IMG/VR virus record: IMGVR_UViG_3300005805_000003
Coordinates: 1 to 58,306 of that record
Origin: a virus
Lineage: Duplodnaviria; Caudoviricetes
Direction: 5' to 3' (one strand)
Length of the DNA: 58,306 nucleotides
Part shown: in pieces, positions 5,834 to 55,055 of the stretch
Layout: the number at the start of each line of letters is the position of its first letter
Numbering within the stretch: position 1 is the first letter of the stretch
Notes under the pieces: generated by a model
Seen by the model: the letters and a program-made list of their open reading frames with translations, nothing else
Databases searched by the model: none
What the model was told of the DNA's origin: nothing
Program-made: the position numbers and the translations under genes

Positions 5834-6031
5834 CTATCTTACTCCTCTGACTCGGTTCCAAACTCGTTCATGACCGTAATACAAAATGGTGTTGGTAACC
5901 ATCTGCACCATTGCAATCGTGCCTGCCGCCGCAAAACTGCCAGAGACAACATAGGATATCAAAAAAGTAGCCGTGCTACCCGTTACTCGCCACGTGATTG
6001 TTTTGATGAGGCTGCGTTTCTTTGTGTCCAC
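5834..6031 (-). CDS. DUF2061-family small membrane protein
   Basis: RSLIKTITWR...LYYGHERVW signature. Confidence 0.85.
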   Translation of the reverse strand: MDTKKRSLIKTITWRVTGSTATFLISYVVSGSFAAAGTIAMVQMVTNTILYYGHERVWNRVRGVR

Positions 6032-6435: not shown

Positions 6436-6436
6436 C

Positions 6437-7839: not shown

Positions 7840-8234
7840 AGCGCATCAAGCTCGTCATGCGTAGTGGCTGCGTTGATTGCAGTCACTTTGGTCTCAAAGG
7901 CAATGCGAGCAGCGTCAACCGTAGCAGCGTTGTATTGAGTTTCTGGGAACTCATCCACTTCCTTACGCATCTCTTCCTGCACAACCTGCTGAAACGCAGC
8001 AGCAGCCTGTGAGCGCATTCCACCCTTACGGTCTTCAGCAGTGATGTCAACCACGCCCCAGACGATCTCTACGGGGTCTTTGGTGATGTCAAAGGTGTGA
8101 GCTGTGTACTGCTGACGGTTTGGTGTCAGAGCAGGGCGTACTTCGATGGCTGACTTCCAGCCTGACTCACCACGCGGAGGCTGAGTGTCCCAGCACTGGG
8201 TTACTTCGTTGTTTTCAATTTTTACAAAGAACAT
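7836..8234 (-). CDS. Putative tail-fibre assembly/chaperone-like protein
   Basis: 132 aa; C-terminal I.AATT.DEL.AL; follows a receptor-binding gene. Confidence 0.45.
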   Translation of the reverse strand: MFFVKIENNEVTQCWDTQPPRGESGWKSAIEVRPALTPNRQQYTAHTFDITKDPVEIVWGVVDITAEDRKGGMRSQAAAAFQQVVQEEMRKEVDEFPETQYNAATVDAARIAFETKVTAINAATTHDELDAL

Positions 8235-8247
8235 TTTGTATCTCCTA

Positions 8248-9471: not shown

Positions 9472-10166
9472 TTGACTCTCCTCAAGGCTTGTTTCTCTGC
9501 ATGATATTGTCTCATAGCCTCCGCCCTCTTTGCTTTCGATTCTGTTGACTGGCGCTTACCCATGTTTGCAGCACTGATTTTAGCCTTTGTCTCTTCAGAG
9601 TGCGCTCGCCCGTAAAACGGGTTATTTGAACCGGCAGACATTTCTCGGCGTTTTTGCACCGTTTCTTCAGACTGCTTTTTGCCTAGTTTAGCCAAACGCA
9701 TTTTTTCAATAGATTCTTCAGAATGTTTTCTTCCAAACCAGTGGCTTTGTTCTCCGCACACACCATGATGCCAATGCTTTTCACCACGGCGCGATTCAGA
9801 TATTTTTTGTTTAGTTTCTTCAGTTCTTTTTTGCCCAACTAGCTTTAAAACTCTTTTCCTAATAGATTCTTGAGTCTGGCTCATGCCCGGAACCCAACCC
9901 TGTTTTGCGTTCTCTGGCTTTATATTTGCCCACTCTTTTGAGTTAACCACGTTAAACTCTTTTGAGCATTTAAGCCCCGCTTTAGAGCATTCTTCTATAT
10001 CGTCAAATACGCCAACAACACATGTTATTATGTTTTTGCCATGAGCTTTTAAGTGCGCCGTCCAATACAAACCAGAACCCAAATACAAGTATGGGTCTTT
10101 TGTGGTAACACCAAGGTACTTTAACCCAGTATCCATGTGGCGCTTTATGTAAAGTGAAATACTCAT
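9468..10166 (-). CDS. Free-standing homing endonuclease, GIY-YIG-like with NUMOD3 repeats
   Basis: LYIK.H..TGLKYLG.T...Y.GSG..W; repeated HSEETK.KIS and NPFYG motifs; AT-rich. Confidence 0.8.
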   Translation of the reverse strand: MSISLYIKRHMDTGLKYLGVTTKDPYLYLGSGLYWTAHLKAHGKNIITCVVGVFDDIEECSKAGLKCSKEFNVVNSKEWANIKPENAKQGWVPGMSQTQESIRKRVLKLVGQKRTEETKQKISESRRGEKHWHHGVCGEQSHWFGRKHSEESIEKMRLAKLGKKQSEETVQKRREMSAGSNNPFYGRAHSEETKAKISAANMGKRQSTESKAKRAEAMRQYHAEKQALRRVK

Positions 10167-11965
10167 TAAGAAGCTACTAGCCTTATTTTTTGACTTGGAA
10201 ACCGATTGTGCAAGCGTTCTTTAACCTGCTTAAACGGCTCCTCCCAAGTACCGAATATTGTCTGGCGCACCAACTTCATACTGTCATAGTACAAGCAAGC
10301 GTCCATGCCGTCATCTGCGTATATTTCCATGCAGTGCAGAAAGTATGGCATGACGGGAATTACAACCCAAGTCTCCACGCCCATCGCAGCAGCCAAGTGA
10401 CTGACCGAGGTGCAAGATGAGATCACCAGATCACACGATGCCGCAGCAGCACGGGTATCTTCCCAGCTATCTAGCGGGACTTGCTTAACCCAAGACGGAC
10501 ACGAATCAGCACCCTCGTCGCGTTGCAGGGAGATGAACTCAGCATCTGCATCCTTTACCGCGTCGAACAGCAGGTCATACGGAAACTTCTTGTTGTGGTC
10601 ATGCTCAAAGGCTGACTGACCCTGCCAGCGCAGCCCTATGCGCTTTCTACGGGCTTTGATGGTCTTAGGCTTTGTGATGTACGGCTTGCCAGACAGATCG
10701 CTTAATTCAAGCCCCAGAGGCACTACAGCAGACATACCTTGAACGTAGAAGTCATGGTAGATGCCAAAGCTTGCTTCATGCTGAATAACAGCCGCCACAC
10801 CCTCAACGTCAACGAACAGGGAGGCCAGTGGGCCAGAGCAGGACACAATGACTTTACAGCCACGATCTGCAATCAGCTTGGCGTATCTTACCTGATGTAT
10901 CTGGTCACCCAAACCGCCTTCAAGGTGCAGCATAACGATGCCCTTGCTCTTACCATCCCACGGCTGAGTGGGGACGCTGGGCTTGGCGTTACCAAAGACG
11001 TTAACAATGCGACCGCGATCCAGCAGTTGGTAACCCTTCTGTATCTGACCCTGACGCAAGAGATACCAGCCACGGTTGTAGGCTGCACGGTGGTTGTCAG
11101 GCTCGTCCTTCTCCAGCTTCTGGCACAGTCTCCAGCCCTCGGCAAAGTCGCCCATTCGTGAGGCCACCAGTTGCAGATCAAGGTCGTGTATCTCAGGAAT
11201 TGTGCGAGGACGATCAAGCCAGAACTCAGGCTGACAGAACTGCGGGTAGTGGTGCTTCAGTACGTCCTTTGGGCTTTCTTGATGCTGTCTTTCCAGTACC
11301 GGCTTGATGTCGTGCAGGCCAGAGTAACCGTGCAGGTTCTCGTCATCCTCTTTGACCGTTGAGCCATCAATGTTGGCAAAGTCGTAGTCAAAGTCAGGCA
11401 GGTCAAGGAATGCGTGTATGCGCTGCAACTCCGCTTTCGGGTCGGCCAGAAGGTCTTCGTACTCTACAAACAGGAACGACTCAGGATCGTATGCGTAGCC
11501 CTGCTGGAGCGTCTGGTAGGAGCCTTTCAGGTGGTTGGTCAGTGAGCTGTTAACAAGGAAGTCATCCAAGTTGGTTGGCTTGGCTACACGGACAAAGGAT
11601 GCCATGCAATCAGGGATAGAGCGCACTGTCGCAATGATCTTGGGCTTGTGACCCAGCACCTGACCCATCGCCTGCATAATCACGGGAATCGGCCAGTTAC
11701 GCGCCTTGTCGATGATTACCGGCTTGGGGACATCTTCGTAGAAAGCATCGATTACTCCGCGCATGGTGTGAGCCAGTTTGCTGCGATCAGGATCGTTGTT
11801 AACAAGAAGGTTGTCACGATGCCAAGCCGTAGCCAGACCGTCCAGAGCTGCGCCCAGAGCAGAGGTTGTTGACACATGCGTCATTGGGTTCTGATTCAGG
11901 ATAGCCGCCAAGACAGTTGAGCCTGATCGCGGTACGCCTGAGAGAAAGTGTAGGTTTTTGTTCAT
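10166..11965 (-). CDS. Sulfotransferase-TPR-glycosyltransferase (GT9-like) fusion
   Basis: SGVPRSGSTVL (PAPS loop), IDK.R.W, YEDL..DP; TPR helices; EGGLGDQIHQ.RY, SLQR, DLVISSCTSVSHLAAAMG; start at 11965 chosen from the RBS AGGA. Confidence 0.85.
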   Translation of the reverse strand: MNKNLHFLSGVPRSGSTVLAAILNQNPMTHVSTTSALGAALDGLATAWHRDNLLVNNDPDRSKLAHTMRGVIDAFYEDVPKPVIIDKARNWPIPVIMQAMGQVLGHKPKIIATVRSIPDCMASFVRVAKPTNLDDFLVNSSLTNHLKGSYQTLQQGYAYDPESFLFVEYEDLLADPKAELQRIHAFLDLPDFDYDFANIDGSTVKEDDENLHGYSGLHDIKPVLERQHQESPKDVLKHHYPQFCQPEFWLDRPRTIPEIHDLDLQLVASRMGDFAEGWRLCQKLEKDEPDNHRAAYNRGWYLLRQGQIQKGYQLLDRGRIVNVFGNAKPSVPTQPWDGKSKGIVMLHLEGGLGDQIHQVRYAKLIADRGCKVIVSCSGPLASLFVDVEGVAAVIQHEASFGIYHDFYVQGMSAVVPLGLELSDLSGKPYITKPKTIKARRKRIGLRWQGQSAFEHDHNKKFPYDLLFDAVKDADAEFISLQRDEGADSCPSWVKQVPLDSWEDTRAAAASCDLVISSCTSVSHLAAAMGVETWVVIPVMPYFLHCMEIYADDGMDACLYYDSMKLVRQTIFGTWEEPFKQVKERLHNRFPSQKIRLVAS

Positions 11966-11975
11966 TGTTATCCTG

Positions 11976-13124
11976 TTATGTTTTGATGGCAATGCAAAAC
12001 TTAGATTGACAACCAGCAGCGGTCTTTACCCAATCAGTTAATGCGCCAACTTGTACTGGACTAGAGCGTTGGGTGGTGTCATTTTGTCCGTTTTGACCAT
12101 AATCGTTTTGACCCCAAGACCACAGAGTTTTGTTAACTTTAACAGCAAAACAAGTGCTTCTACCCGCAGATATTTTAGACCACGTAGTAAGTGCGCCTAT
12201 TTGCACTGGACTGTTGCGATTAGTTGAGTCATTCAGGCCGAGTTGACCATAGTTATTTCTTCCCCATGCCCACATTGTGCCGTCTGTTTTAATAGCGGCG
12301 CAGAAAGTTCTTCCGGCAGCAATCTGCGCCCACGTTGTTAATGCCCCAACCTGAACAGGGCTGCTGCGGTTTGTGGTGTCACCTTGCCCAAGTTGTCCAT
12401 AGGCGTTAGCTCCCCACGACCACATAGTGCCGTCAGTTTTAATGGCAAGAGAAGTAAAATCGCCAGCAGCAATTTTTGACCAAGCAGTAAGCGCACCAAC
12501 TTGTACTGGGCTACTGCGGTTTGCAGTGTCGTTAAGGCCAAGCATTCCCCCGTTTCCGAAAGCTGTGCCTAGTCCCCAAGACCACAATGTGCCGTCAGTT
12601 TTAACGGCAAGGGTGTGGTAATTACCAGCAGCATTCTGTGACCACGTAGTGAGTGCGCCTATTTGAACTGGGCTTGAACGCGAAACCGTGTCTCCTAATC
12701 CTAGTTGACCATTCGCACCATACCCCCAAGACCACATTGTGCCGTCTGTTTTAATAGCAAAAGAGAAATTGATGCCACTAGCAACTTTATACCAAGTTGT
12801 GAGTGAACCCACTTGTACTGGGCTGGAACGAGTAGTGGTGTTGTTTTGTCCAAGTTGTCCGTTGCCGTTGCTTCCCCAAGACCACATTGTGCCGTCTGTT
12901 TTAATAGCGAGAGTGTTGTATTGTCCCGCAGACAATTCTAGCCAAGCAGTTAACGCACCAACTTGAACGGGGCTGGAGCGACTAGTGTTAGTGTTTTGAC
13001 CAAGTTGACCATTCCCGCCAGCTCCCCACGAAAAAAGTCCCCCGCCGGGCGGCTTCGGCCAGTTACCCGCAGCCTCGGCCTGCATCTGAGCTACCAATGT
13101 CCAAACACCGCTGTACGAGGGCAT
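11976..13124 (-). CDS. RCC1-repeat beta-propeller protein 2
   Basis: About seven RCC1-like repeats; N-terminal SGVWTL..Q.....WP. Confidence 0.85.
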   Translation of the reverse strand: MPSYSGVWTLVAQMQAEAAGNWPKPPGGGLFSWGAGGNGQLGQNTNTSRSSPVQVGALTAWLELSAGQYNTLAIKTDGTMWSWGSNGNGQLGQNNTTTRSSPVQVGSLTTWYKVASGINFSFAIKTDGTMWSWGYGANGQLGLGDTVSRSSPVQIGALTTWSQNAAGNYHTLAVKTDGTLWSWGLGTAFGNGGMLGLNDTANRSSPVQVGALTAWSKIAAGDFTSLAIKTDGTMWSWGANAYGQLGQGDTTNRSSPVQVGALTTWAQIAAGRTFCAAIKTDGTMWAWGRNNYGQLGLNDSTNRNSPVQIGALTTWSKISAGRSTCFAVKVNKTLWSWGQNDYGQNGQNDTTQRSSPVQVGALTDWVKTAAGCQSKFCIAIKT

Positions 13125-13167
13125 TTAATACCTCAATCCTGATTGGTTGATGTTCATGGTTATCCTG

Positions 13168-14607
13168 TTATGGCGCACGGAGTGCCATCATGTGATTTGC
13201 GCTTCCACTATTTTTACCAAGCGCAAGCCATGTTGTTAGCGCACCAACCTGCACTGGACTGGACTGATTAGGGCCGTAAGTGTTAAGGCCAAGCCTACCA
13301 TAGCTTCCCTGCCCCCAGCTCCACATCGTGCCGTCAGTTTTAATTGCAAAACAAGAGTTAGAAATCAGAGACACCTGAGTCCATGTAGTAAGCGCCCCAA
13401 TCTGTACGGGGCTAGACCGAGTTATGGTGTTGTTTTGCCCAAGAGCGCCAAGACTGTTAGCCCCCCACGACCACATTGTGCCGTCATCTTTCAACGCGAC
13501 ACACAAACCTCCGTTTGATGCTGTTATTTTTGACCATGTTGTTAAAGCGCCAATCTGAACTGGGCTGCTACGGTTTGCAGTGTTGTTAAGACCAAGCTGA
13601 CCATCGCTTCCTGACCCCCAACTCCAGAGAGTCCCGTTAGTCTTGATAGCAAAAGATGAATTGCTGCCTCCTGCTATGCTTTCCCAATCAGCACTCGATC
13701 CAACCTGAACAGGGCTTGATCTCGCAATAGTATCGTTTTGCCCAAGTGTACCCGCAAAATTATAGCCCCACGCCCAGAGCGTTCCGTCATTTTTAATAGC
13801 AAGGCAAAAGCCGGGACTACTTGCCGCTACTGCGGCCCATGTCGTCAATGCGCCAACTTGAACAGGGCTGCTTTTATTTTCAGAAAGCCCACCAACACCT
13901 AAACCTAACTGCCCATATTTACCTTGACCCCATGACCACATAGTGCCGTTTGTTTTAATTGCAACACAAAATGCTTTTTCTATCTGTGGCTGTCCACCTG
14001 TAACCACTTCATACCAAGTTGTTAGCGCGCCAACTTGAACAGGGCTGGAGCAATTTGTTGTGTTGTTTAAACCTAGCTGGCCTATATCATTTACACCCCA
14101 TGCCCATAGTGTTCCGTCCATTTTAACTGCAACAGTTGATAAAAACCCTGATGACACTTGGCTCCAAGTTGTTAAAGCACCCACTTGAACAGGGCTTGAT
14201 ATGTTGACCGTGTCATTTAGACCTAGCTGGCCGCCATTGTTTCGACCCCATGCCCACAGTTGTTGTTGGACTACCGGAGTTACCGAGTTGCTTGCCGCGC
14301 TTGATGGACTAGAACCAAAGATGTTCACTGCAAACACAGTTACAGTGTAAGCCGAGTCTGTTGTCAGACCTGTTATGGTTACCGGCGACGATGAGCCTGT
14401 CGTAACTACAGTGGTTCCATCAGATGTTTTAGTGGCAACAACCGTATAGCTTGTAATAGCGCCACCTCCCACGTTAGAAGGCGCAGTAAACGTCACCGAG
14501 ACAGATGTAGCACTCGCAATACTTGCCGTCCCAATCGTAGGCGCGTTGGGAGTCTTCAGCGGGTCGTAGCCCGCAGAGATAAAGCCTGATGGGTAGCGTA
14601 AAGACAT
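13168..14607 (-). CDS. Fibronectin type III plus RCC1-repeat protein 1
   Basis: PNAPT...V.FTAP...GG.AITSYTV...Y.VTV.AVN..G.S..S (FN3), then about seven RCC1 repeats. Confidence 0.85.
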   Translation of the reverse strand: MSLRYPSGFISAGYDPLKTPNAPTIGTASIASATSVSVTFTAPSNVGGGAITSYTVVATKTSDGTTVVTTGSSSPVTITGLTTDSAYTVTVFAVNIFGSSPSSAASNSVTPVVQQQLWAWGRNNGGQLGLNDTVNISSPVQVGALTTWSQVSSGFLSTVAVKMDGTLWAWGVNDIGQLGLNNTTNCSSPVQVGALTTWYEVVTGGQPQIEKAFCVAIKTNGTMWSWGQGKYGQLGLGVGGLSENKSSPVQVGALTTWAAVAASSPGFCLAIKNDGTLWAWGYNFAGTLGQNDTIARSSPVQVGSSADWESIAGGSNSSFAIKTNGTLWSWGSGSDGQLGLNNTANRSSPVQIGALTTWSKITASNGGLCVALKDDGTMWSWGANSLGALGQNNTITRSSPVQIGALTTWTQVSLISNSCFAIKTDGTMWSWGQGSYGRLGLNTYGPNQSSPVQVGALTTWLALGKNSGSANHMMALRAP

Positions 14608-18919: not shown

Positions 18920-19585
18920 TCACACCCCGAAGTCCGGCACGATGTGGAAACTCGCGGTGTCCCTGTCCTCCAGTGCCGCTCTCAAGAAGTCCTCTTCGTA
19001 GATCTGCTTCAGCGCGCCCGTTCGATCGGGCATGTATTTCAGCGAGAGCATATAGGACAGGCCAGAGGCCAGACATGGCAGGAACCGGAAGTTCACATCT
19101 GAGGTGTTCTCGTAGTTGCCAGCGTCCTGAATGCGTCGTATTCGGTAGTAAACGAAGGTGTACACCTGATCGGATGCTGGGTACAGGTAAGCCTTTGGCG
19201 CATTGGTACGTTCCACGTAGAACTGTGCGGGGCGTGCTTGGGTCGTCTTATTCGGCAGATCCAGATACTCTTCGCGGCTGATCCGGTCGATGGAGACATC
19301 CTGCTGCTGGCCTGTCGTGTTCTGCCGGATCACCGCCGACAGTACGTTGACCGTGTCCGTTGGAAGGTTCAGCACCCGGCTACCCTGCGTCAGTGCGATC
19401 GTTGATTCCTCGATCGTCCACAGGTTCAGACCACGGTTCGCCCAGTCAAGAAACAACAAGTTTAGCGACCGACGCGCAGAGGACAGCTGATAACCCGAGG
19501 TCATCCGCATACCGCAACGCTCGAACGCCTCTTCAATCAGGTCATCGATGCTCAGATTAAAGTCTGTTGTCCCAGAAGTACTCAT
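18920..19585 (-). CDS. Head-tail connector / tail tubular protein A-like
   Basis: TSGT..F.L....IEEAFERCG, RRSLN....WANRG.NLW, RFLPC...GL.Y, YEE.F.RA. Confidence 0.72.
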   Translation of the reverse strand: MSTSGTTDFNLSIDDLIEEAFERCGMRMTSGYQLSSARRSLNLLFLDWANRGLNLWTIEESTIALTQGSRVLNLPTDTVNVLSAVIRQNTTGQQQDVSIDRISREEYLDLPNKTTQARPAQFYVERTNAPKAYLYPASDQVYTFVYYRIRRIQDAGNYENTSDVNFRFLPCLASGLSYMLSLKYMPDRTGALKQIYEEDFLRAALEDRDTASFHIVPDFGV

Positions 19586-19773
19586 GAGCAGGCCATTCCG
19601 CCCTTGGCCTTAGCCACGACCTTCTTCTTTTTCTTCTTCTTAGCCTCACCACCCTTCGCCATCATGACGGGGCCAGTCGTTTTGCTTGTCTCGGACAACA
19701 TACGGTTTCTTGGACCACTTTCAACCGCTCCGCCGCCTTTTGTAGCGGCACCCATTCCACGTCCAGCCATCAT
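19582..19773 (-). CDS. Small basic protein with xxxGG motifs
   Basis: RGMGAATKG, MAKGG, poly-K, KAKGG. Confidence 0.6.
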   Translation of the reverse strand: MMAGRGMGAATKGGGAVESGPRNRMLSETSKTTGPVMMAKGGEAKKKKKKKVVAKAKGGMACS

Positions 19774-24942: not shown

Positions 24943-25401
24943 TCACTTGTGCAAAATGCTTGCAGGATCTGACACAATTCCCAAAATCTCGTCATCGTTC
25001 AGAAGGCGAATCTCACCGCCCTCAATCTGGATGCGGGAGCCCGCGTAACGACCAAACACCACCCAGTCACCGGGTTTACACCATGCGCCGTCGGGGAACT
25101 TGCTTTCGTCCGCGTAGGCGAGGGGTCCAAGCTTGAGCACGTAGCCCACGTTGGTTGCCAGTTGAGTGCGTTCAGTAGTTTCTTTGGTCAGCACAATGCC
25201 GCCCTTTGACGTACCGGCGCCCCGGTAAGGTAGCAGCGCAAGGCGCCACCCAGTCGGTTGCGGTATCAAGTCCAAGACGCTTTGTGTGAGACCACTTTCT
25301 GGAACGGTGCCATCATCTGTGTAGGCATCGTTCAGCGAGGGTTTTTGGTTGGCCTTATCGTCTGCCCATTTCTGTTCTAGAGCTGTCAGCTTTGGTTGCA
25401 T
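24943..25401 (-). CDS. groES: GroES-like co-chaperonin
   Basis: P.G.R......T.GGI.L, V...GP.AY, GD.V.F..YAG......E..LLNDDEILG. Confidence 0.85.
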   Translation of the reverse strand: MQPKLTALEQKWADDKANQKPSLNDAYTDDGTVPESGLTQSVLDLIPQPTGWRLALLPYRGAGTSKGGIVLTKETTERTQLATNVGYVLKLGPLAYADESKFPDGAWCKPGDWVVFGRYAGSRIQIEGGEIRLLNDDEILGIVSDPASILHK

Positions 25402-25799: not shown

Positions 25800-28160
25800 C
25801 TATTGCGCCGTTGGTTTGGGCGTGGTTATGCGCTCGCGGGCAACTTCAAAGCGCCCCTGAGCGATCTTTTCCTGCGAGGCAATGCGCTCGTCGTTAGCCT
25901 GAGAGCTTTCCTGTATGCGCATCTGCTCGTTCTTCAGCCCCTCTTGCTTGAGCTGTATTTCAGCCTGATCCTTCGCCGCGCGCTGCTGAAGCTCCTGCTC
26001 CTTGAGCGCGATGACCGGGTCAGGTCCGGCTGCACCCTCGCCAGAGAGCGTTGTCTGCATCGCCTTGACGTCCATCAGGTACTGGGCAATGTTGAGCGAG
26101 ATCATCGCCTCACGCTGCATGTCGGAGACCATGCGATCGGGGTCGCTGCCGTACTGACGGAACAGCTCGGCCTCGGCATCTTCTTCTGCCTTCAGCTTGA
26201 CGTGCTCCATAACGTGTTTCTGCAGTTCCACTGCCGCCAGTGGGTTGCCCTGCACCAAGGGTGAGAGACCCATGATCAGGTGCGAAGCGATGTGCGAATC
26301 GTGCTGCTGGCCGGCAAACGCCTTGAGCTGCTTGCCGTCGATCGCATCGATGTTCTCGCTGGCTGGGTCCTTGGGCATCTGATTGGTCTGGGTCTTGAGA
26401 ATGCCGTCGATATCGCGCACGTTCATTGACTGGTAGACGCGGTAGTACGCCTCGTACATGTTGTGCATGTTCGGTGCACTTTGCGCGAGCTGCAGCTGCG
26501 TCTGCGCCAAGGTAATGCGCTGCGCTGCGGAGAATATATTCGGGTCAGCAACCGGCAACACGGCAACTTTGTTGTCAAAGTCGCTTTGCTTAATTAAACG
26601 AGACGCTCCCGGGACATCGTAGGGGTACTCGGGGGGCAAGTACTGACCAAATCCTCGGAAGAGCATCTCAAACTCTTGCGTCTGTGCGTAGTACAGGCGC
26701 TTATGGATGGCGCTCATCACCATCGACCCACGCTCAAGCAACGCAAGGGTGGTGCCCACTGCCGCTTGCTGGTTGGCGTCACCCACCTGCATGTCTGCAA
26801 TGCTGGCAAGGCGACGTCCGGCGTCAACAGTGAAGCTTAAGAGCGCAAACAGGGTCTGACTGGGCTCTTTATAGGGCAGCGGCAGCAGTGATGAGGCCAA
26901 TTCAGCCCCGCCAGCGTCAATATCACGCCATTCACCCGGCTGGATCGGCTTATCATCGTCCGCGATCCGCGCACCCTTTGCCTTAAAGCCCGCAGGCAGG
27001 TTAGACAGCGTGCCGGAGTCCAATAACTGACGAAGCGCAGAGGTTGCGGTCTTAGAAAGGCCACCAATCAGGTGCACAAAGCCCAAACCGTAGGCGCCAA
27101 GGCCAGAAACCAGCATGTAATGCACAAAATACTCAATTCTCAGGTGCAGAGGGTCGTCTTCTGCCCAGTTTCGACGCACACTGATCACTCGACCACTGGT
27201 TTCGTCGGTTGTGACCACATACGGCAGCTTAATACCCGTCGGCTCGCCGTCTTCGTCCACGTCTTCGTAGCCGGGGATGTCCAAATCGACGTGAAACTCC
27301 AGCAACGCGATCTCTTCGGGCTCACCAGCGGACTGCATGCCGGTAATTCGGTCAATGGTGGCGCCAATTTGATCCTGTGTGATGCCAGAACCGTCAGGAG
27401 ACACCTCAATATCGATGTATTCACCCGCATAAACACGCTTTTTGAACTCGTTTGAGTCCATCGCAATGCGGTGCGTGATGCGCCGGCACTCGGAAATCAC
27501 ACTCGAGCCGTGATAGGGGATAAAAAGATCGTCGGCAAGCACTAAACGGCTGACCATACGGCCTAATTGCGCGTCGTAATACACCTTTTTGAAGGTAGAT
27601 CCGCCGTATCCTGTGTAAAACAGCAGCTGATCGAACTCCGGCGTGTATTCTTTCATCACGGCGGTGATCTGATAGTTCATGAAATCCTGTACACGGGCAG
27701 CCTGCTGCACCTTGTCGAGGGTTTCCTTGCCTAATGTTTGCGTCCTGACAGGACCACCCGCTGGCATCAGCTCCTTAAACGATTGCGCTTGGAACTGGAT
27801 GATGGCCTCGGTCAGCATTGGATGCACCACGCCCGACGCGCCACGGAACGGCTGCGTGCGATCTTCCATCTTAAGTCCCAGCAGGTCCAAACCCTTGGCG
27901 TACATCTCCTCCCACTGCCCGCGAGAGCTCTTGTCCGCGTCGAACAGCGCCTGCAGGTTGATGGAGATGTGCCCAAGATCCTGCGGATCGATGCTGTCTG
28001 CAAGGTTATCGTAAAAACCCAGCTCCTCATCGTCCATGCCGATCTCAATCAGAGCACTGCCGTCATCCTCAATGGTGATCTCAATGTCCTGACCGTCGTC
28101 TTCATCAAATTCAATGATGTCGGAGTTCGGAGCTAAGTTTACGACCTTGTCTATTGGCAT
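25800..28160 (-). CDS. Portal protein
   Basis: 786 aa; SR..WE..Y..GL.LLG, HP.L.EA..QFQA, DFMNY, GS.FKKVYYD, RQLLD.GTL.NLP.GFK, PV.DPN..S..QR. Confidence 0.9.
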   Translation of the reverse strand: MPIDKVVNLAPNSDIIEFDEDDGQDIEITIEDDGSALIEIGMDDEELGFYDNLADSIDPQDLGHISINLQALFDADKSSRGQWEEMYAKGLDLLGLKMEDRTQPFRGASGVVHPMLTEAIIQFQAQSFKELMPAGGPVRTQTLGKETLDKVQQAARVQDFMNYQITAVMKEYTPEFDQLLFYTGYGGSTFKKVYYDAQLGRMVSRLVLADDLFIPYHGSSVISECRRITHRIAMDSNEFKKRVYAGEYIDIEVSPDGSGITQDQIGATIDRITGMQSAGEPEEIALLEFHVDLDIPGYEDVDEDGEPTGIKLPYVVTTDETSGRVISVRRNWAEDDPLHLRIEYFVHYMLVSGLGAYGLGFVHLIGGLSKTATSALRQLLDSGTLSNLPAGFKAKGARIADDDKPIQPGEWRDIDAGGAELASSLLPLPYKEPSQTLFALLSFTVDAGRRLASIADMQVGDANQQAAVGTTLALLERGSMVMSAIHKRLYYAQTQEFEMLFRGFGQYLPPEYPYDVPGASRLIKQSDFDNKVAVLPVADPNIFSAAQRITLAQTQLQLAQSAPNMHNMYEAYYRVYQSMNVRDIDGILKTQTNQMPKDPASENIDAIDGKQLKAFAGQQHDSHIASHLIMGLSPLVQGNPLAAVELQKHVMEHVKLKAEEDAEAELFRQYGSDPDRMVSDMQREAMISLNIAQYLMDVKAMQTTLSGEGAAGPDPVIALKEQELQQRAAKDQAEIQLKQEGLKNEQMRIQESSQANDERIASQEKIAQGRFEVARERITTPKPTAQ

Positions 28161-28174
28161 TTTTTATCCTAGAG

Positions 28175-31100
28175 CTATTTGCTTTTTCCAATGAGATTAT
28201 CCAGCATGCGGCGCGAGGAGGTTACTGAGCCGCCTTTGGACATGCCTTCTGGTTTTTTGCGCTGGGAACCGCTTGTGGCGTATGCAACAGGCTTGCCGGT
28301 ATCGTCGTCGTAGAACATCGCGCCGCCACGGTGGAAAACATCACTTGGCTCATCGCGCTCGGACACGGCTGACGGAAGGCCATATTGTCGCCGGAATTGC
28401 AGGTACTCTTCAGGGGTCGTTATCTGCTTTACATCATCCCAGCGATAGCCGGATTCCTCGACAAAGCTTTTTGCACGGTCAATGCCGAGTTGCTCGTTTA
28501 CCGGGCGGCTGGTTTTGGAAGGGCTATTTATGCCTTCTTGGGGGCTTGCGCGGGCCGCTTGACCGACCCTGTCAGGTACAAGTTTTGAAAGCTCTTCCCT
28601 TGCGCTTCCGACATTATTTGGTTGCGAACCATTTGTGCCAAGGGTGAGCTCTCCCCCGATCTCTGAATTATTCTTTGGAGCCGTGCTTCTAAGGTATTCA
28701 TCGTACCCATCCCTAAAAAATACTTGTGTGTCTTGGTAAGTTAGCCGCGCATCTGAGACGTTGCCTTCAGATAGCAGCTCTTCAACAACTTGGTCATACA
28801 AATCTTCTTTCTGTGCGTAAATCTCATCCCTCTTCGCCGGATCAAAGGATCTGTCAAATTCTGGCACGTATTGAAAGCGCAGTCCAGTCAGTGATGCAGT
28901 CTCTGGATCTCCTGAGCGGGATTGTCGGTTTGCTTTATCACTAAATCGCGTGTCAGTTATAGTAGTAAAACCATCTATGCCTTTATCGCGCAGCCTTTGC
29001 GTAAGAGCTTCCAATGTCTTCAGAGGTACAGCTTTTCTAAAGTATATCTCAACTCCCGGCCTTGCATTAGGGGCAGACGCATCGACAGATTTAGATATGA
29101 ACACAGCATCCTGATCGTAAAATTTACCCTGCTCAACCAGCCTTCGAGTTAATGCGTCTGGATTAAAATCTTCTCCTACAATAATTTCAGCGTTTAGCGA
29201 CCTTTCCTTTTCCCCGGCAAAAAGCCCATATCCGTTGGCAAGACCGTACCCACGCACAGACTGATTATTGCGAAGCACATCATCAATCTCAGCAGCAAGC
29301 TCAGCCTGTTCGTAGTTGCTCATAAGCTTGTCTGGCACTCCCTCGCGGCCACGTATCTCCCCAGAGACCCCAAGTGTGTACCGCTGAAGAGGAGCCTCAA
29401 GAGCCCGAAGCTCTATGCCTGCCAGCTCCTGTCGGTTGTCATAGACGCGCCTTGCTTGAGCCACTCTCTCTGCATATTCTGCATCTGTTTCTTTTTTTCT
29501 TTTATTTGGGGCTTTAAAGCCTGCATTAATTTCTCGGCGCAAATCATCAATGCGAACTTGATCTGCGCCTCCAGCTAGGGACATTTCGTACTCAAGCGAT
29601 CCGCCCTCACCGGCTTTTGTTGTCCAGCCGTTTTTAGTCCACAGCTCCTTTTCCATAAACCAAGCAACTGCCTGCAGATCGTCTGGTCCAAGATCACCCA
29701 TCTCAGGAATAACAGACTTTACACCACCAGCGGCGTTAATCCTGTCTGCGGCGCTTCTGAACACATCTTGCCCAAAACCAAACTCTCCACCAACGCGAGG
29801 ATTTTCAAGGCTTGAGTCTTTTAGGTGTTTTCCAGTTACAGCTTTTTCAGCCACAGGAGGTACTCGTGACTGGCCTGAAAGCCGGCGAAGGAAGCGCCCG
29901 GCCCAGACATCTATTGTTGCTTCGTTAGTAAGCCCAATTAGGTTGCCGGTGAAGTTTGGCGTTTTGGGCGCGCTGCCCATTTTTACGGACCTAAACATGC
30001 CCAACAAAGCGCCCATCGAGGACGGGCTGTTTGTATTAAAAAGCTTACCAGATGAGCTGGTAATTAACGGAAATTCTCCTGCGTTGTGCAGGGCAGTTAA
30101 CGCCTTGCCGTCTACGGGCAGCCCCTGTTTTATTCTGTTCTCATAAGCCTGCAGTTCTCCATCAAAATCACCACGACTATATCTGCGAAGTATCTCAGTG
30201 GCGTTTCTAAAATTCTGCTCTACATTTGTCTGGGCGCTTGTTGTGCCGAGCACATCAGCAAAAACATCACCAATACCACCAAATTCAGATCTCAGCTGGT
30301 CTCGCATCGTGCGATACCAATTAGCCTGCCTGAGTATATTTACTGCTGCCTGATCGCCTGATCTGGCGCGCTCTACTACGCCGTCCACTTCTCTGACTAA
30401 ATTGTCAGAAAGACTATTTGCCCATGCTTCCTTTTCCATTCCTGCTGGAGGTTTTTCAAACCCATACGGAATGTCTTTAAAATCAGGCTTGCCTTTTTTC
30501 ATGCCAACAGCCTGAATTGGCGCCCAGCCATTTTCTGGCAAATAATTGCCCTTAATTCTGCGCGCCTCTGTCTTTAACTTTCTTCGCGTATTTCTATTTT
30601 TAACCGCCTTGTCTATTGCTTGCGTCTCTTCTCTGGCTAGTCTGATAGGAGATGCATCAGCTGCATTTTCCAACTCATCCAACATCGAAGCAGCCGACCC
30701 AGCAGGCGGCTCGTCCCCAGTAGGCGCATCAATCCTGCTCATGGGCGGCACGTCAAACGGACTGGCACCACCCATGCTGCCAACAGTGCTGGCGAACAGC
30801 TCGGCTGCTGTTGATCCGGGTGCAAGCCCGCGTGCAGCTGCAGCGGCTGCCTCTCCTCCAAAATACGCCCCAGCTTCGCGGCCAAGGTTAGGGAACATGG
30901 ACGAAAGCTGACGCGCCGCTGACGGGGAACCGGTTGGGGATAGCATCGCGCCGGGTAGGGCTCTCGTTGTTGCTGCCGCCGCGCGTCCAGCGGTAGCAAA
31001 CGGAAGGATGGATGCTCCAAGGCCGCCAACGCTGTACGGGTTGTAGTCTTCAACGCCCAGTGCTTCTCGCACGCGCGGAGCTGCTGGTGTGAACTCACCA

Positions 31101-32689
31101 GCATCAAGGCCGGCCCTGTTACCCAAGTACCGCGCACCCATCTGCGCAAGGTCACCAAGGCCGACGGTCATGTCAACCGCTGCGCCAACGGCTGGCTTGG
31201 AAACCGTTTCGTAGAAGCCTTGATTTAAAAATCTGCCCGCATCCTTAAGGCGGTCCAGCATGGAGCGGCTTTCCGTTTGCTCAATCTCTGGCTCAGGCGT
31301 GCGCAGAAGATCATCAGCACTGACCGACGCGTCCTCCCGAATATACAGCGGGTCATTCGGGCTCAGCGGAGTTCGCGCGCTGACATCTCCGCCAGCTTGA
31401 AAACGAGGCAGCTGATCCCTTGCTGACCCATCAGACTTTTTTACGGCGCCGCCTTTGCTAAACAAATAACCACCGTATACAGGCGCTTCAACCTCAACAT
31501 CCGTGCCGGTCATGCCGTCAGTAACCGTTATTTTTTCGGGCGTTGTCTCGCGGGGCGCAGGCAAGCCAGCAAGGTACTTCTGAAGGTTCTGCGCCTCGGT
31601 TGTCTTGGGATCAAATACCGCGAGAGGGTCTGATGGAGTAAGGGGGTCGGCCCCAAAAAACCCAGACATTACCATGTTGCGCAGTTGATTATAATTTCTA
31701 ATGTCGTTAAGCGCGGGTATCGATTGCCGCAGCTTGCGAAGGTTGTTGTCAATCAGCTGTCGGTTCTGCGCAAAACGCTGCGAAGCGGACGTCAACCCGC
31801 CGTAGGCTTGAATCTCTCTTGGGCTCAACAGAGAACGCGGACGCGTGGTAATGCTCGGCGGCGTGAACGTAAAGCCGGAACCCGTCGCCGGTCGAAGCTT
31901 CGCGGCGGGAGAGTAGTCGAACTGACCCGGCATGCCGGGGATCGCCGTTCGCGGAGAGCTCTCCCTGAACGCCGTGTCCAGAGCCGGCTGCCCCGCAGCA
32001 AACATGTCAGGCTGTGGCGTGATCGGCTGGTACACCGTTATCGGCGTGTAGGGCACGGGATCTGGGAACGGCGGAGGAGGCGGAGCAGCCTGCGGACGGG
32101 TGAAGAGCACGTTCGGGTCAACGCCAGCCTTGAGCAGGTCATCGAACGAGTAGCCCCGCTCGGTCGCGTACTCCAGCATCTGCGCACGCTCGCCCGCATC
32201 GATACCGCCCTGCTGCAGGTTGGCAATGTAATCACGACCCTGCTTGTCCAAGATGGCGCGGCCATCCTGACCGAGTGCTGTCAACCGCTGCGACTCAAAG
32301 GCCAGATCGGGACTACGCTCATACGCAGAGGTCATGCCGGTGGGCGTTACAAACTGCGACTGAGGGATAAGCGGCATCTTCACCGAAAAGATCTTGTTCA
32401 GCACCTCATCCGCAACGCCTGCATTACGCAGGTCAGAGGTGCTGATGCCCGACTCGATCATCAGGTTGTACGCATCAACGCCCGTCGGCGCATTCGGATT
32501 GGCAAGGTAGGCCGCCGCATCCTTACGCAAATTAGCGTAGTAGTCGTCAACCGTCTGCTGACCACCTGTCCCCATCGCCTTGCGGTAAGCCGCCGACACG
32601 CCCGGCGCGGTGTCCACCGTACCACCTTCCGCCATCCGCATCGGAAGCCGTAACAACATCTCTCGCGCAGTCAAATTGGGCATAGCCAC
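28175..32689 (-). CDS. 1504-aa multidomain (polyvalent-type) probable internal virion protein
   Basis: Between TerL and portal; modules separated by xxxGG and SxRxMLDxL motifs; contains glycosylase-like and SAM-lyase-like segments. Confidence 0.7.
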   Translation of the reverse strand: MAMPNLTAREMLLRLPMRMAEGGTVDTAPGVSAAYRKAMGTGGQQTVDDYYANLRKDAAAYLANPNAPTGVDAYNLMIESGISTSDLRNAGVADEVLNKIFSVKMPLIPQSQFVTPTGMTSAYERSPDLAFESQRLTALGQDGRAILDKQGRDYIANLQQGGIDAGERAQMLEYATERGYSFDDLLKAGVDPNVLFTRPQAAPPPPPFPDPVPYTPITVYQPITPQPDMFAAGQPALDTAFRESSPRTAIPGMPGQFDYSPAAKLRPATGSGFTFTPPSITTRPRSLLSPREIQAYGGLTSASQRFAQNRQLIDNNLRKLRQSIPALNDIRNYNQLRNMVMSGFFGADPLTPSDPLAVFDPKTTEAQNLQKYLAGLPAPRETTPEKITVTDGMTGTDVEVEAPVYGGYLFSKGGAVKKSDGSARDQLPRFQAGGDVSARTPLSPNDPLYIREDASVSADDLLRTPEPEIEQTESRSMLDRLKDAGRFLNQGFYETVSKPAVGAAVDMTVGLGDLAQMGARYLGNRAGLDAGEFTPAAPRVREALGVEDYNPYSVGGLGASILPFATAGRAAAATTRALPGAMLSPTGSPSAARQLSSMFPNLGREAGAYFGGEAAAAAARGLAPGSTAAELFASTVGSMGGASPFDVPPMSRIDAPTGDEPPAGSAASMLDELENAADASPIRLAREETQAIDKAVKNRNTRRKLKTEARRIKGNYLPENGWAPIQAVGMKKGKPDFKDIPYGFEKPPAGMEKEAWANSLSDNLVREVDGVVERARSGDQAAVNILRQANWYRTMRDQLRSEFGGIGDVFADVLGTTSAQTNVEQNFRNATEILRRYSRGDFDGELQAYENRIKQGLPVDGKALTALHNAGEFPLITSSSGKLFNTNSPSSMGALLGMFRSVKMGSAPKTPNFTGNLIGLTNEATIDVWAGRFLRRLSGQSRVPPVAEKAVTGKHLKDSSLENPRVGGEFGFGQDVFRSAADRINAAGGVKSVIPEMGDLGPDDLQAVAWFMEKELWTKNGWTTKAGEGGSLEYEMSLAGGADQVRIDDLRREINAGFKAPNKRKKETDAEYAERVAQARRVYDNRQELAGIELRALEAPLQRYTLGVSGEIRGREGVPDKLMSNYEQAELAAEIDDVLRNNQSVRGYGLANGYGLFAGEKERSLNAEIIVGEDFNPDALTRRLVEQGKFYDQDAVFISKSVDASAPNARPGVEIYFRKAVPLKTLEALTQRLRDKGIDGFTTITDTRFSDKANRQSRSGDPETASLTGLRFQYVPEFDRSFDPAKRDEIYAQKEDLYDQVVEELLSEGNVSDARLTYQDTQVFFRDGYDEYLRSTAPKNNSEIGGELTLGTNGSQPNNVGSAREELSKLVPDRVGQAARASPQEGINSPSKTSRPVNEQLGIDRAKSFVEESGYRWDDVKQITTPEEYLQFRRQYGLPSAVSERDEPSDVFHRGGAMFYDDDTGKPVAYATSGSQRKKPEGMSKGGSVTSSRRMLDNLIGKSK

Positions 32690-32720: not shown

Positions 32721-34196
32721 CTAATAATACTCCGGCACAAGCGATTCGTCACCCGCTTCGTCTTCTTCGTCCGACTGCAACGAAATAAAGTTCCCAGCGC
32801 GAAACCGCATCAGCGCCTGCGTCGTGCTGTCAACGATATCATCATTGTCGCCATTGGGGAACGACGCACACTCCTCAATCACCTCCTGAGCAAAGTGATC
32901 CTCAGTTGCCCAGATCATGCCCGACTCGAACATCGGCGCAACCGCATTGGCGCGCGAGACCTTGTCGTGACCCGCACGGCGCCCGCCCGGGCTGTACATC
33001 GTTACCGGAATCCCCATTCGGCGAAGCTCCTGCTGCAGCGTCGTGCCCGTCGCCTTCGCCTCAATGAGGACATTGTCCGGCTGCCAGTAGGTGTAGAGAT
33101 CCTTCGCGATGCGCTTCAAGTCTGGAAAGTCCCAGCGACCCTTGCGCATGTCCATTAGAATCAGATTCGCACCCGCATCCTCCGTCGGGTAAAACACCCC
33201 CCACGTCGTGATCACCGAGTAGTCCGCCGTCTCCTTCTTCGAGTACGCCGTGTCATACGACTGGATAATGTACTCAACCGACGGCAACGAATCCCGCTTC
33301 CAGATCCGCCACCACTCGCGCTTCAGGATCGCACCCTCGTCCGCCGTCGGACGCTGCTGGTACATCGCGTTCCAACGCTGCACCCCAAGCTGCGCTCGCA
33401 CCGCCTGAAGCTCCTCAAGCTTCCAGAACGACGGCCACAGCGGACGCTCCTTCGGCGTACCCTCATCAAAGATCGCCGGAAACTCAATCACCTCCCACTT
33501 GTCGGAGCCAAACGAGTTCTGACTCTTGATCAGCCGCGCACTGAGATCCTTCGTTCCCCAGCGGGTCATGATCACAACAACCGCCCCGCCCGGCTGCAAA
33601 CGCGAGCGCGGACCGGAGCTGTACCACTCCCACGCATTGTCCAGCGCCAGCGACGACATCGCATCCTGCTCAGAGTGCGGATCGTCTATGATCAACAGAT
33701 CCGCGCCTCGTCCCGTCATCGCGCCGCCTACACCTACTGCAAAGTACTCACCACCCTTGCTCGTCTCCCAGCGACCCGCCGCCTTGGAATCCGCCTGCAG
33801 CTCCACGCCCTCAAACAGATCCTTGTAGTTCTGCGTGTCCATGAGGTTACGCACCTTGCGGCCAAAGCGCACCGCGAGCTCACCCGTGTGCGTCGCCTGA
33901 ATAATCTTCAGGTCAGGCTTGCGACCCATCGCATACGCCGGCAACAGGTACGAGCCAAACTCACTCTTCGTGTGACGAGGCGGCATGTTGATAATCAACC
34001 GCTTCAGGTCACCACTGATGATCCGGTCAAACGCATCCGCCATCTTCGAGTGATGCGCCGAGAAAATAGCCTCCGGCCATGCGTAGCGCGCAAAGTCCAG
34101 AAACTTAGCCTTGCTCTTCTCCCGACGGTCCAACAGCGCCAGACGAAGCTCAAGGCGAAGCCGCTGCGCCTCGACTTCATTGGGATCCATGTGCAT
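32721..34196 (-). CDS. terL: Terminase large subunit
   Basis: PPRHTKS (Walker A), LIIDDP (Walker B), MTRW, YQQ.P, SYDTA and DDIVDSTTQA nuclease motifs. Confidence 0.95.
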   Translation of the reverse strand: MHMDPNEVEAQRLRLELRLALLDRREKSKAKFLDFARYAWPEAIFSAHHSKMADAFDRIISGDLKRLIINMPPRHTKSEFGSYLLPAYAMGRKPDLKIIQATHTGELAVRFGRKVRNLMDTQNYKDLFEGVELQADSKAAGRWETSKGGEYFAVGVGGAMTGRGADLLIIDDPHSEQDAMSSLALDNAWEWYSSGPRSRLQPGGAVVVIMTRWGTKDLSARLIKSQNSFGSDKWEVIEFPAIFDEGTPKERPLWPSFWKLEELQAVRAQLGVQRWNAMYQQRPTADEGAILKREWWRIWKRDSLPSVEYIIQSYDTAYSKKETADYSVITTWGVFYPTEDAGANLILMDMRKGRWDFPDLKRIAKDLYTYWQPDNVLIEAKATGTTLQQELRRMGIPVTMYSPGGRRAGHDKVSRANAVAPMFESGMIWATEDHFAQEVIEECASFPNGDNDDIVDSTTQALMRFRAGNFISLQSDEEDEAGDESLVPEYY

Positions 34197-42777: not shown

Positions 42778-43148
42778 AGTCTTCTGCAGACAAGGTTTCT
42801 GCGGTGGACCGAGTGCCCACAGAGCATGAGGAGCAGAGGGAGTTTGTTTGGTGGTTCCGGCGGACTTATCCTGATGTTCGCATTTTTGCTATCCCGAACG
42901 GGGGCGCTAGGTCACGCCGAGAAGGTGGCAGGTTTAAGCTGGAGGGAGTCTCGCCGGGCGTGCCTGATCTGTTTATTCCTGCGTGGTTGCTGTGGATTGA
43001 ATTTAAAAAAACCAAGGGGGGCAGTGTGTCAGCAGAGCAAAGAGATTGGATTGAATATTTAAACCTGATCGGCCATAAAACCTTTGTGGCGAAGGGCGCG
43101 GAAGCCGCAAAGAGCTATGTTAAGTCCACGCAGGAGGCCGCAACATGA
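42741..43148 (+). CDS. VRR-NUC nuclease
   Basis: EH.EQ, AIPNGG.R, GV..GVPDL, IE.K...G..S..Q..W. Confidence 0.88.
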   Translation: MRRLARNANTVLKSSADKVSAVDRVPTEHEEQREFVWWFRRTYPDVRIFAIPNGGARSRREGGRFKLEGVSPGVPDLFIPAWLLWIEFKKTKGGSVSAEQRDWIEYLNLIGHKTFVAKGAEAAKSYVKSTQEAAT

Positions 43149-43789
43149 CTGTCAAAAGAGGACGCATAGCAACACTGCTTAACCAATCACCCGTGCGCAG
43201 AGACAGGCTCAATGCGCGCCTGAACACGCCGGTGGCGCCACTTGAGGACCAGACGCGCCCGGTGACACCACAGCAATGGAGGTTTATTCAGGAGCTGATT
43301 GACGGTGATGGAAAGGTAACCCTTGTGCAAGCGGCTTTAGCTGCCGGCTATTCAAAAGATTCTGCCGGTGACATTGGCTACAACCTGACAAACCCAAAGC
43401 GCAATCCCCACATCGTCGCGGCCATTCAGCGATACCGGCAGGACGTTGCTGAAAAATATGGCACCACGATAGAGCGACACATGAGGGACCTGCAGAACAT
43501 CCGCGATAAGGCGCTGGAGGCCGGCAACTACTCTGCTGCAGTGCAAGCAGAGTACCGACGTGGTCAGGCGCTGGGAACGATCTACGTGGAGCGCAAGGAA
43601 ATCCGTCACGGCACCATCGATACGATGAGCGCGGAAGAGGTGCGAAAGAAGCTGGAGGAGATCAAGGCGATGTACGGCGACCCTGCGCAGGTGATCGATG
43701 TTACGCCGATCGTTGACGAAATCGCTGAGGATATCGTTGATGAGGAGTACGACGAAGAGTATGAACCCGATACGGAGCAGAAGGAATGA
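43145..43789 (+). CDS. terS: Terminase small subunit
   Basis: T..Q..F..E, T..QAA..AGYS, L..P.I..AI, L..IRD.A, AV.AE; acidic tail. Confidence 0.75.
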   Translation: MTVKRGRIATLLNQSPVRRDRLNARLNTPVAPLEDQTRPVTPQQWRFIQELIDGDGKVTLVQAALAAGYSKDSAGDIGYNLTNPKRNPHIVAAIQRYRQDVAEKYGTTIERHMRDLQNIRDKALEAGNYSAAVQAEYRRGQALGTIYVERKEIRHGTIDTMSAEEVRKKLEEIKAMYGDPAQVIDVTPIVDEIAEDIVDEEYDEEYEPDTEQKE

Positions 43790-53284: not shown

Positions 53285-53296
53285 AAACTCCGTTTA

Positions 53297-55048: not shown

Positions 55049-55055
55049 ATTCACC

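Follow-up and report, generated by a model that had tools for sequence, protein, structure and literature searches.

The window analysed here is the whole of IMG/VR virus record IMGVR_UViG_3300005805_000003, 58,306 bases with direct terminal repeats at the ends, and is the complete 58.3-kb genome of an HTVC023P-like podophage. Its minus strand carries a giant open reading frame (ORF; Table 1) between two packaging genes, TerL (32721-34196; match to phrog_38, E 1e-114) on one side and the portal gene (25800-28160; phrog_1216, E 2e-40) on the other, and it is the protein encoded by this ORF, together with a short peptide element repeated along it, that we describe. Residues are numbered from the GTG that opens the frame of 1504 amino acids (aa); because homologues start (MPN.../MAN...) at the ATG two codons downstream, as do 8 of the 10 complete relatives, the true product is probably 1502 aa long. 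A protein database lists the gene in two pieces, P0004 (1028 aa, covering aa 3-1030) and P0263 (469 aa, from aa 1036), both 100% identical to the giant protein; the two sit on one 17,206-base contig, and a second assembly of the same phage may be broken there, while the frame in the window is open. The portal is 70% identical to that of DSL-LC04, 45% to those of HTVC023P and HTVC027P and 41% to those of CRP-901 and CRP-902, with matches to other named phages as well. For the whole giant protein, a tblastn search of 50,697 phage records returned nothing at E≤1e-5, and hence no cultured phage with a homologue; the syntenic proteins of DSL-LC04 and HTVC027P could not be aligned with it significantly by pairwise BLAST (best E 0.008), and a PDB sequence search gave no match at E≤1.

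The sequence-only reading had described the protein as punctuated by a motif, [S/T]-x-R-x-M-L-x-x-L, represented by five peptides. All five are present where they had been placed (aa 7, 422, 473, 665 and 1491), although the strict consensus fits only those at aa 7 and 1491 and not the other three. Two strict matches compare with 0.002 expected from 20,000 shuffles, and the core M-L-[L/D]-x-L, found four times (aa 11, 477, 669 and 1495), with 0.034 expected, none of the 20,000 shuffles reaching four; copy 2, SARDQLPRF, is a degenerate fifth copy outside this core. A chance origin of the motif is ruled out by the shuffling together with the conservation in homologues described below. Gly-Gly dipeptides as such are not enriched in the giant protein (18 against 13.3 expected, P=0.11); the longer pattern [M/F]-[A/Q]-x-G-G occurs nine times in the 80 ORFs of the phage against 1.56 expected, a number reached in none of 2000 shuffles.

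The motif proved to be the amphipathic-helix half of a two-part element, which we term the seam, whose other half is the Gly-Gly (GG) element [M/F]-A-x-G-G-x-V. In its fuller form the helix half reads [S/T]-[E/S/A]-[S/A]-[R/S]-x-M-L-[D/E]-x-L, and in homologues both halves recur within a cassette, ...[F/M]-A-x-G-G-x-V-T-S-S-R-R-M-L-[D/E]-x-L-I-G-K-K-P-E-G-Q-R-V-D-A-T-G-L-x-x-F-A-x-G-G-E..., which is followed by an acidic, Pro-rich spacer and then by Q-T-E-S-R-x-M-L-x-R-L. Residues 404-481 of the giant protein make up one full cassette. At the N-terminus, in MPNLTAREMLLRLPMRMAEGG, the helix is joined directly to the GG element, and the same element heads the ORFs of all ten relatives; at the C-terminus, KGG-SVTSSRRMLDNLIGKSK followed by the stop codon ends in the middle of a cassette, which in relatives runs on into more cargo. 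The seam caps both termini and separates the modules of the chain. At the copies of the motif AlphaFold2 predicts short helices (residues 8-13, 423-431, from 473, and 665-676), all in low-confidence stretches, and the copies adjoin homology breakpoints at aa 401-410, 470-471 and 647-686, which bears out the earlier observation that they lie near GG motifs and domain boundaries.

Conservation in the N-terminal half is concentrated in these elements: in an alignment of 37 sequences G413 and G414 are invariant, V416, K418, G421, G433, G434, L462, E473, S474 and L478 are conserved at ≥90%, as are M669, L670 and D671 of copy 4, and 15 of the 19 columns at ≥90% in aa 1-690 lie in seams, a count from a tool whose treatment of gaps is unstated. 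Because synonymous codons vary from copy to copy, across the five of the window as well as across 27 copies of TESR type and 9 of SSRR type from relatives, the seam is selected as a peptide and not as DNA; a DNA-level recombination signal is ruled out on the same grounds, and the seam peptide is under purifying selection. Scored as presence or absence, the motif was found in 67 of 82 listed homologues of at least 1100 aa against 2 of 38 shorter ones, one of these two being the window's own fragment. When short proteins with a C-terminal seam were sought in the protein database, two of five candidates qualified, one being a 785-aa protein that bears two seams and the other the fragment of the window itself, so that stand-alone seam-tagged proteins are rare in the database searched. 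DSL-LC04 and HTVC027P have GG elements and no M-L helix: the GG half reaches these two phages and the putative ejection proteins of the phage itself, whereas the M-L helix is restricted to a narrower clade.

Other sequences carrying Gly-Gly patterns were noted in passing. A tail, G-G-x-V-x-K-x-N-V-E-R-x-x-N-D-N-R-K-Y-[L/I], closes the TerL-portal ORF in 7 of 10 relatives (L008, L010, L011, L012, L014, L015 and L018); L020 has a variant of it, and in L027 R-K-Y-I-stop is found, in a different frame, just past the called stop. This tail is missing from the window and from L007, both of which stop inside a seam. In the head-tail region, a 63-aa ORF (19582-19773, minus strand) contains seven Lys in a row, an R-M-L tripeptide and three x-K-G-G peptides (ATKGG, MMAKGG, AKAKGG), and a 142-aa ORF (3042-3470, minus strand), rich in Lys, Gly and Met and without a family match, consists mostly of G-M-K-K-G-G-[V/A]-A-G-G repeats; the latter may be a basic internal or DNA-associated protein.

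Table 1. Features of the giant ORF and of two putative ejection genes of the phage. Motif copies are numbered from the N-terminus.
Feature	Residues (aa)	Position (nucleotides)	Strand	Remarks
Giant ORF	1-1504	28175-32689	(-)	open 1504 codons from GTG; probable ATG start at 32683
N-terminal seam	3-23	32621-32683	(-)	MPNLTAREMLLRLPMRMAEGG; motif copy 1 at aa 7-15 (32645-32671), then [M/F]-A-x-G-G
Module A1	27-210	32060-32611	(-)	all-helical; two S-x-x-D-L-x-x-A-G-V-x-x-x-V-L hairpins; no known fold found
Pro-rich linker	211-299	31793-32059	(-)	18% Pro; low pLDDT; breakpoints aa 196-205 and 293-320
Module A3	300-403	31481-31792	(-)	helical domain and beta-hairpin; pLDDT 79-94
Internal seam cassette	404-481	31247-31480	(-)	GG(406)-FSKGG(413/414)-AVKKSDG-SARDQLPRF-QAGG(433/434)-acidic/Pro spacer-TESRSMLDRL; SARDQLPRF, copy 2 (31400-31426); TESRSMLDRL, copy 3 (31247-31273)
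Module B2	482-664	30698-31246	(-)	helical; Gly/Ala-rich (33%); low model confidence
Pre-core seam	665-678	30656-30697	(-)	SAASMLDELENAAD; copy 4 (30671-30697); GC3 step here
Core C	679-1341	28667-30655	(-)	helical half including a sub-threshold DUF7178 match, and alpha/beta half; GC3 0.41
Disordered linker and small module D	1342-1400 (linker); 1401-1480 (D)	28250-28666	(-)	linker pLDDT 31-37
C-terminal seam	1481-1504	28178-28249	(-)	PEGMSKGG-SVTSSRRMLDNLIGKSK-stop; copy 5 (28193-28219)
Putative internal/ejection protein, 601 aa		53297-55102	(-)	GG half twice (MQMARGG, RFQQGG); no family match
Cysteine-free putative ejection protein, 683 aa		56176-58227	(-)	MGFAQGG, SPREIQ...GG, hydrophobic Gly/Ala segment, tape-measure-like C-terminal motif

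The giant protein is a chain of at least five modules (A1, A3, B2, core C and D), as delimited by homology breakpoints and by AlphaFold2 models built with alignments in two runs, one of the N-terminal half (37 sequences) and one of residues 676-1400 (50 sequences). Parsing into domains by structure prediction, proposed together with the motif, returned separate folded units joined by low-confidence linkers. The model of the N-terminal half (mean predicted local distance difference test score, pLDDT, 60.7) contains a confident, helical A1 (aa 30-210) and a confident A3 (aa 300-400), followed by some 290 low-confidence residues; that of aa 676-1400 (pLDDT 89.4, predicted template-modelling score 0.86) shows one compact unit, aa 679-1341, and then a disordered tail. 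The peptide SPREIQAYGG, which closes the Pro-rich linker, is shared with the 683-aa putative ejection protein. B2 is replaced by an unrelated segment in one near-identical phage and duplicated in some homologues; membrane insertion of B2 was considered and rejected, since no 19-residue stretch reaches a Kyte-Doolittle mean of 1.2 (maximum 1.09) and B2 thus has no classical transmembrane helix. Module D is found only in some relatives (P0002, P0003, P0005, P0009, P0031 and P0065).

Of 8000 candidates scored in a word-indexed search, 263 are homologues at E≤1e-3, and the 120 of these that were listed span 839-2409 aa. BLAST against homologues splits the giant protein into aa 3-315, 409-680, 680-1390 and 1391-1504, and the breakpoints cluster at aa 196-205, 293-320, 401-410, 470-471, 647-686 and 1378-1405. 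Among 38 related IMG/VR loci, ten have both TerL and portal, and in all ten the gap between these genes is a single ORF of 1508-2724 aa. Comparison of this interval shows that cargo differs between near-identical phages: in L011 (TerL 96% and portal 98% identical to the window) the ORF ends in ART-PolyVal, in L012 (97% and 98%) it ends in GNAT, and the giant protein of the window has neither. Additional Pfam domains in homologues comprise ART-PolyVal, PcfJ, GNAT, PT-HINT, Zeta_toxin and an L5 gp82-like domain; in P0008 (2409 aa; related loci L005 and L013) PT-HINT is inserted between modules A1 and A2, at 28.0 bits against a cut-off of 27.7. Homologues are thus not full-length and invariant, since cargo and modules are swapped among them. 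As to the proposal that the protein is a carrier scaffold with captured enzymatic cargo, the family is indeed modular, with cargo that varies and swaps that fall at the motif, but the copy in the window contains no recognisable enzyme.

Individual exchanges could be followed to their borders. Up to aa 450, P0007 (the L012 ORF) matches the giant protein at 80-100% identity in 30-residue bins; over aa 481-660 identity is down to 17-33%, and similarity returns at aa 661, so that the block replaced is that between motif copies 3 and 4. L004 shares aa 668-1381 at 92% nucleotide identity although its portal is only 71% identical, from which we conclude that the core has been exchanged between lineages; the left border of this exchange lies at copy 4 (aa 668). 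Compared with L009, the window lacks 1166 nucleotides of cargo from aa 1503 on, inside the last seam, and L013 carries a 450-nucleotide insertion directly after aa 23. Judging by these alignments, natural replacements, insertions and gains or losses of cargo have borders at seams.

Base composition changes along the ORF, as had been pointed out: GC content is 0.58-0.65 at 31800-32600 and 0.44-0.51 at 28600-30600. The GC content of third codon positions (GC3) is 0.72 over aa 1-315, 0.53-0.57 over aa 316-675, 0.41 over aa 676-1390 and 0.59 over aa 1391-1504, with 0.75 in TerL and 0.69 in the portal gene, and the shift tracks the module borders. Other loci share the low GC3 of the core: it stands at 0.39-0.43 in L005, L007 and L012, against 0.67-0.72 for A1 and portal, while in the lower-GC relatives L004, L014 and L023 core and portal are alike at 0.43-0.52. 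The GC3 pattern and the 92% match to L004 agree, and both fit a core C that circulates among lineages differing in base composition.

Core C is the most widespread module: a profile-free HMMER search with aa 676-1400 against 1.84 billion representatives found 850 representative clusters at E≤1e-3. Many of the matches are proteins of 2-4 thousand residues that also contain InPase, ART-PolyVal, LPD22/23/37/38/39, SLT and DUF7178 above cut-off; as Iyer et al. 2017 (PMC5512222) use the term, these are polyvalent proteins. In the giant protein itself DUF7178 scores 19.1 bits at aa 808-934 (Pfam scan, E≤0.01), below the gathering cut-off of 27, whilst in distant homologues the same region scores 27.8-36.5 bits and in the nearest ESM Atlas clusters 33-52% of the members contain the domain; no literature on DUF7178 (PF23802) was found. 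Many polar residues of the core are conserved. At E≤1e-3 Foldseek matched it to no solved structure, those of the T7 core proteins included, and the best matches in BFVD are polyvalent proteins of uncultured phages labelled 'large polyvalent protein associated domain'. Homologues of core C of ~930 aa, 57% identical, come from T7-like contigs; in two of these (L033 and L039) the core-C ORF follows tail tubular protein B (phrog_376) and precedes an internal virion protein (phrog_6651) and tail fibre genes. Part of B2 also aligns with the N-terminal region of the T7-like core-C proteins.

Several further observations bear on a virion location. The 1504 aa of the giant protein include no cysteine, although 16 would be predicted from the remaining proteome (P about 1e-7), and cysteine is likewise absent from 105 of the 120 listed homologues; by analogy with secreted proteins, its avoidance may point to passage through the periplasm in an unfolded state. 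Four large unannotated proteins, of 812, 601, 375 and 683 aa, are encoded at 50846-58227 on the minus strand and have a high content of Gly, Ala and Gln. Those of 812, 375 and 683 aa are also free of cysteine, the 601-aa ORF as called has one, and the hydrophobic segment of the 683-aa protein reaches a Kyte-Doolittle value of 1.84; the four are probably ejection or internal core proteins. A Pfam scan (E≤0.01) found no MuF or other known head-anchor domain in the giant protein, and a complex prediction of the portal with aa 1-210 scored 0.00 (mark 0.32), which counts neither for nor against binding.

The earlier suggestion that the chain might be processed as a polyprotein gained no direct support. 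Pfam and PHROGs recognised no peptidase family in 67 of the 80 phage ORFs, the 13 unscanned ORFs all being ≤71 aa, and none of C39 or clan CE type among those scanned, although a very divergent protease could escape such a scan; nor was a peptidase family found in 37 family members (36 relatives and the giant protein). The sole protease-labelled PHROG matches fall on the capsid gene, where they cover the capsid portion of families in which protease and capsid are fused. The head module comprises the portal, a Cpn10-like protein, a coiled-coil 320-aa protein, two small proteins (194 and 162 aa) and the capsid; the capsid and portal proteins are without the motif. For the 320-aa protein there is a weak scaffold lead in the ESM Atlas (score 0.87-0.88, below the 0.9 mark), and PDB sequence searches with the 194-, 162- and 320-aa proteins gave chance-level matches only. 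By gene content, the module looks like a protease-less portal-scaffold-capsid set and like a T7-type scaffold system. The Cpn10/GroES-like gene (24943-25401, minus strand), whose product has a 60-residue N-terminal extension, lies directly after the portal gene and occupies the same place in DSL-LC04 and HTVC027P.

Elsewhere in the genome, a small-terminase-like gene (43145-43789, plus strand; phrog_51, E 2e-10) lies within the plus-strand early/replication block, ~9 kb from TerL and on the opposite strand. The tail-fibre region (5983-14607, minus strand) encodes three RCC1-repeat proteins (8248-9471, 11976-13124 and 13168-14607), a homing-endonuclease-like protein (9468-10166), a sulfotransferase-domain protein (10166-11992), an adenylylsulfate (APS)-kinase-like protein (5983-6435) and two glycosyltransferases (6437-7839), a mix that hints at changes made to a surface glycan or to the virion itself.

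By its core domain the giant protein belongs with the polyvalent proteins and works like them. These proteins of phages and conjugative elements have been argued to be packaged (Iyer, Burroughs, Anand, de Souza and Aravind 2017, PMC5512222), and the likeness extends to the giant multidomain chain, the phage with a portal-terminase system and the location of the gene among virion genes; core C is shared with proteins containing InPase, ART-PolyVal, LPD22/23/37/38/39 and SLT, and relatives carry ART-PolyVal, GNAT, Zeta-like and PcfJ modules. In contrast, the giant protein has no MuF anchor, peptidase or recognised effector, its gene lies between TerL and portal, and its modules are joined by a conserved two-part seam. 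In the main text of PMC5512222 the word 'linker' occurs 0 times and seams are not described; in the available text of papers on HTVC023P-type and CRP-901-type phages the gene is unmentioned and 'polyvalent', 'internal virion' and 'proteom' occur 0 times. A literature search for Gly-Gly cleavage in phage internal proteins found nothing relevant. New here is the M-L helix as a second, co-occurring half of the seam beside the GG element.

Three other known systems invite comparison. The T7-type internal core or ejection proteins, gp14-gp16, and P22 gp7/gp16/gp20, resemble the giant protein in that core C homologues lie in a block of tail tubular B, internal virion protein and tail fibre genes and in that the giant protein has no cysteine; the giant gene, however, sits at the TerL-portal locus and not in that block, where only the homologues of L033 and L039 are found, and its product has extra N-terminal modules and seams and no Foldseek match at E≤1e-3. 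The capsid-targeting sequences of T4 internal proteins and Alt, and the cargo-loading peptides of encapsulins, are short terminal peptides on unrelated cargo that direct it into a shell of HK97 fold; similarly, the helix-GG element heads the ORFs of 10 of 10 relatives and the helix ends the giant protein. The prohead protease cuts off the T4 targeting signals, and the peptides of encapsulins attach to the shell itself, whereas here no prohead protease was found in 67 of 80 ORFs and the seam is also internal and repeated. Gly-Gly is cut by C39 peptidases in double-glycine leaders and by the papain-like proteases of adenovirus, African swine fever virus and coronaviruses. As in double-glycine leaders, the seam has an invariant Gly-Gly behind an amphipathic helix, but the hydrophobic residue stands at -5 instead of -4 or -7, and neither a C39 nor a clan CE peptidase was found in the scanned phage ORFs.

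Taken together, the sequences show that the chain is modular and that its joints and ends are conserved seams at which modules have been exchanged. We give an even chance to the full reading, in which this polyvalent-type protein of an HTVC023P-like podophage is carried in the capsid and ejected with the DNA, a fate that is most likely on the indirect evidence of gene position, T7-like context and lack of cysteine. The seam would then serve the head-assembly or ejection machinery as an address or handle, with the short helix as recognition element and the Gly-Gly as a hinge or, less likely, a cut site, so that any module between two seams would be carried within one polypeptide. The payload would have a constant part, core C, which is common to T7-like internal virion proteins, and in relatives a variable anti-host part, the C-terminal enzyme modules, the copy in the window being a minimal version that ends inside its last seam. 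A handle is favoured because the head module looks protease-less. Several points weigh against this reading: an invariant Gly-Gly with fixed flanks resembles a protease site more than a mere hinge; the giant protein of the window has no Pfam family above cut-off and no recognised effector enzyme; two breakpoint clusters (aa 196-205 and 293-320) are without an M-L helix, so that seams are not the sole exchange points; the breakpoints and exchanges were counted in related sequences and are not independent events; and the T7-like versions of core C have no seams, which implies that the seam is dispensable for the core's own function or packaging in that lineage.

Cleavage of the chain after Gly-Gly is a serious rival, although on balance we consider it rather unlikely. 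In such a scheme the M-L helix would be an exosite, as in double-glycine leaders, and the modules would be freed in the capsid or in the host. The invariance of G413/G414 and near-invariance of G433/G434, together with the fixed residues around them ([M/F] at -5, Ala at -4 and Val at +2), would suit it, as would helix-bearing peptides with GG or a chain end on either side (aa 1-23, 415-434 and 1488-1504), the GG and ~19 conserved residues that end the ORF in 7 of 10 relatives, and the autoproteolytic PT-HINT in the homologue P0008. The GG element also recurs in other putative internal proteins of the phage, and in T4-type heads protease sites recur across internal proteins. The peptidase searches described above nevertheless came back empty, the protease-labelled matches on the capsid gene being confined to the capsid part of fusions; capsid and portal lack the motif in what looks like a T7-type scaffold module, and copies 3 and 4 are without close GG flanks. 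A broader form, which we hold only tentatively and regard as less probable than not, makes helix and GG element, within this podophage clade, a leader-like address and processing code common to polyvalent and ejection proteins, with a reader or protease of phage or host origin, such that modules between seams would be loaded, cut free and injected. If seams were instead passive joints, flexible linkers inherited with the modules because breaks inside folded domains are lost, no reading factor would be needed; their position in disordered regions, the breakpoints at helix-free linkers and the seamless T7-like homologues are in keeping with this. Ordinary linkers drift, yet the seam residues are the best conserved of the N-terminal 690 aa, are kept through synonymous change, and recur beside unrelated modules and at both termini; this conservation makes a purely passive linker improbable. 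Least probable, in our view quite improbable, is a cytoplasmic late protein whose gene only happens to lie among those for packaging, for instance an assembly factor, or an enzyme with phage DNA or precursors of the host envelope as substrate: the want of a head-anchor domain would agree with it, but the core homologues lie in the internal-virion-protein block of T7-like contigs, cysteine is avoided and motifs are shared as in the putative ejection proteins of the phage, and the core is a component of polyvalent proteins, for which packaging has been argued (Iyer et al. 2017, PMC5512222).

Exchange of whole modules at the seams, seen between near-identical phages, explains how cargo can be renewed more quickly than the adjacent structural genes. 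Polyvalent proteins are thought to be an anti-defence payload injected with phage DNA, and the seam offers a concrete, mutable peptide for testing packaging and processing: were it a loading signal, chosen proteins could be loaded into phage capsids, and were it an address and processing code, it would amount to a natural plug-and-play delivery of proteins with phage DNA. The group, made up of relatives of HTVC023P-type pelagiphages, is abundant in both marine and fresh waters, and such a mechanism would be ecologically widespread.

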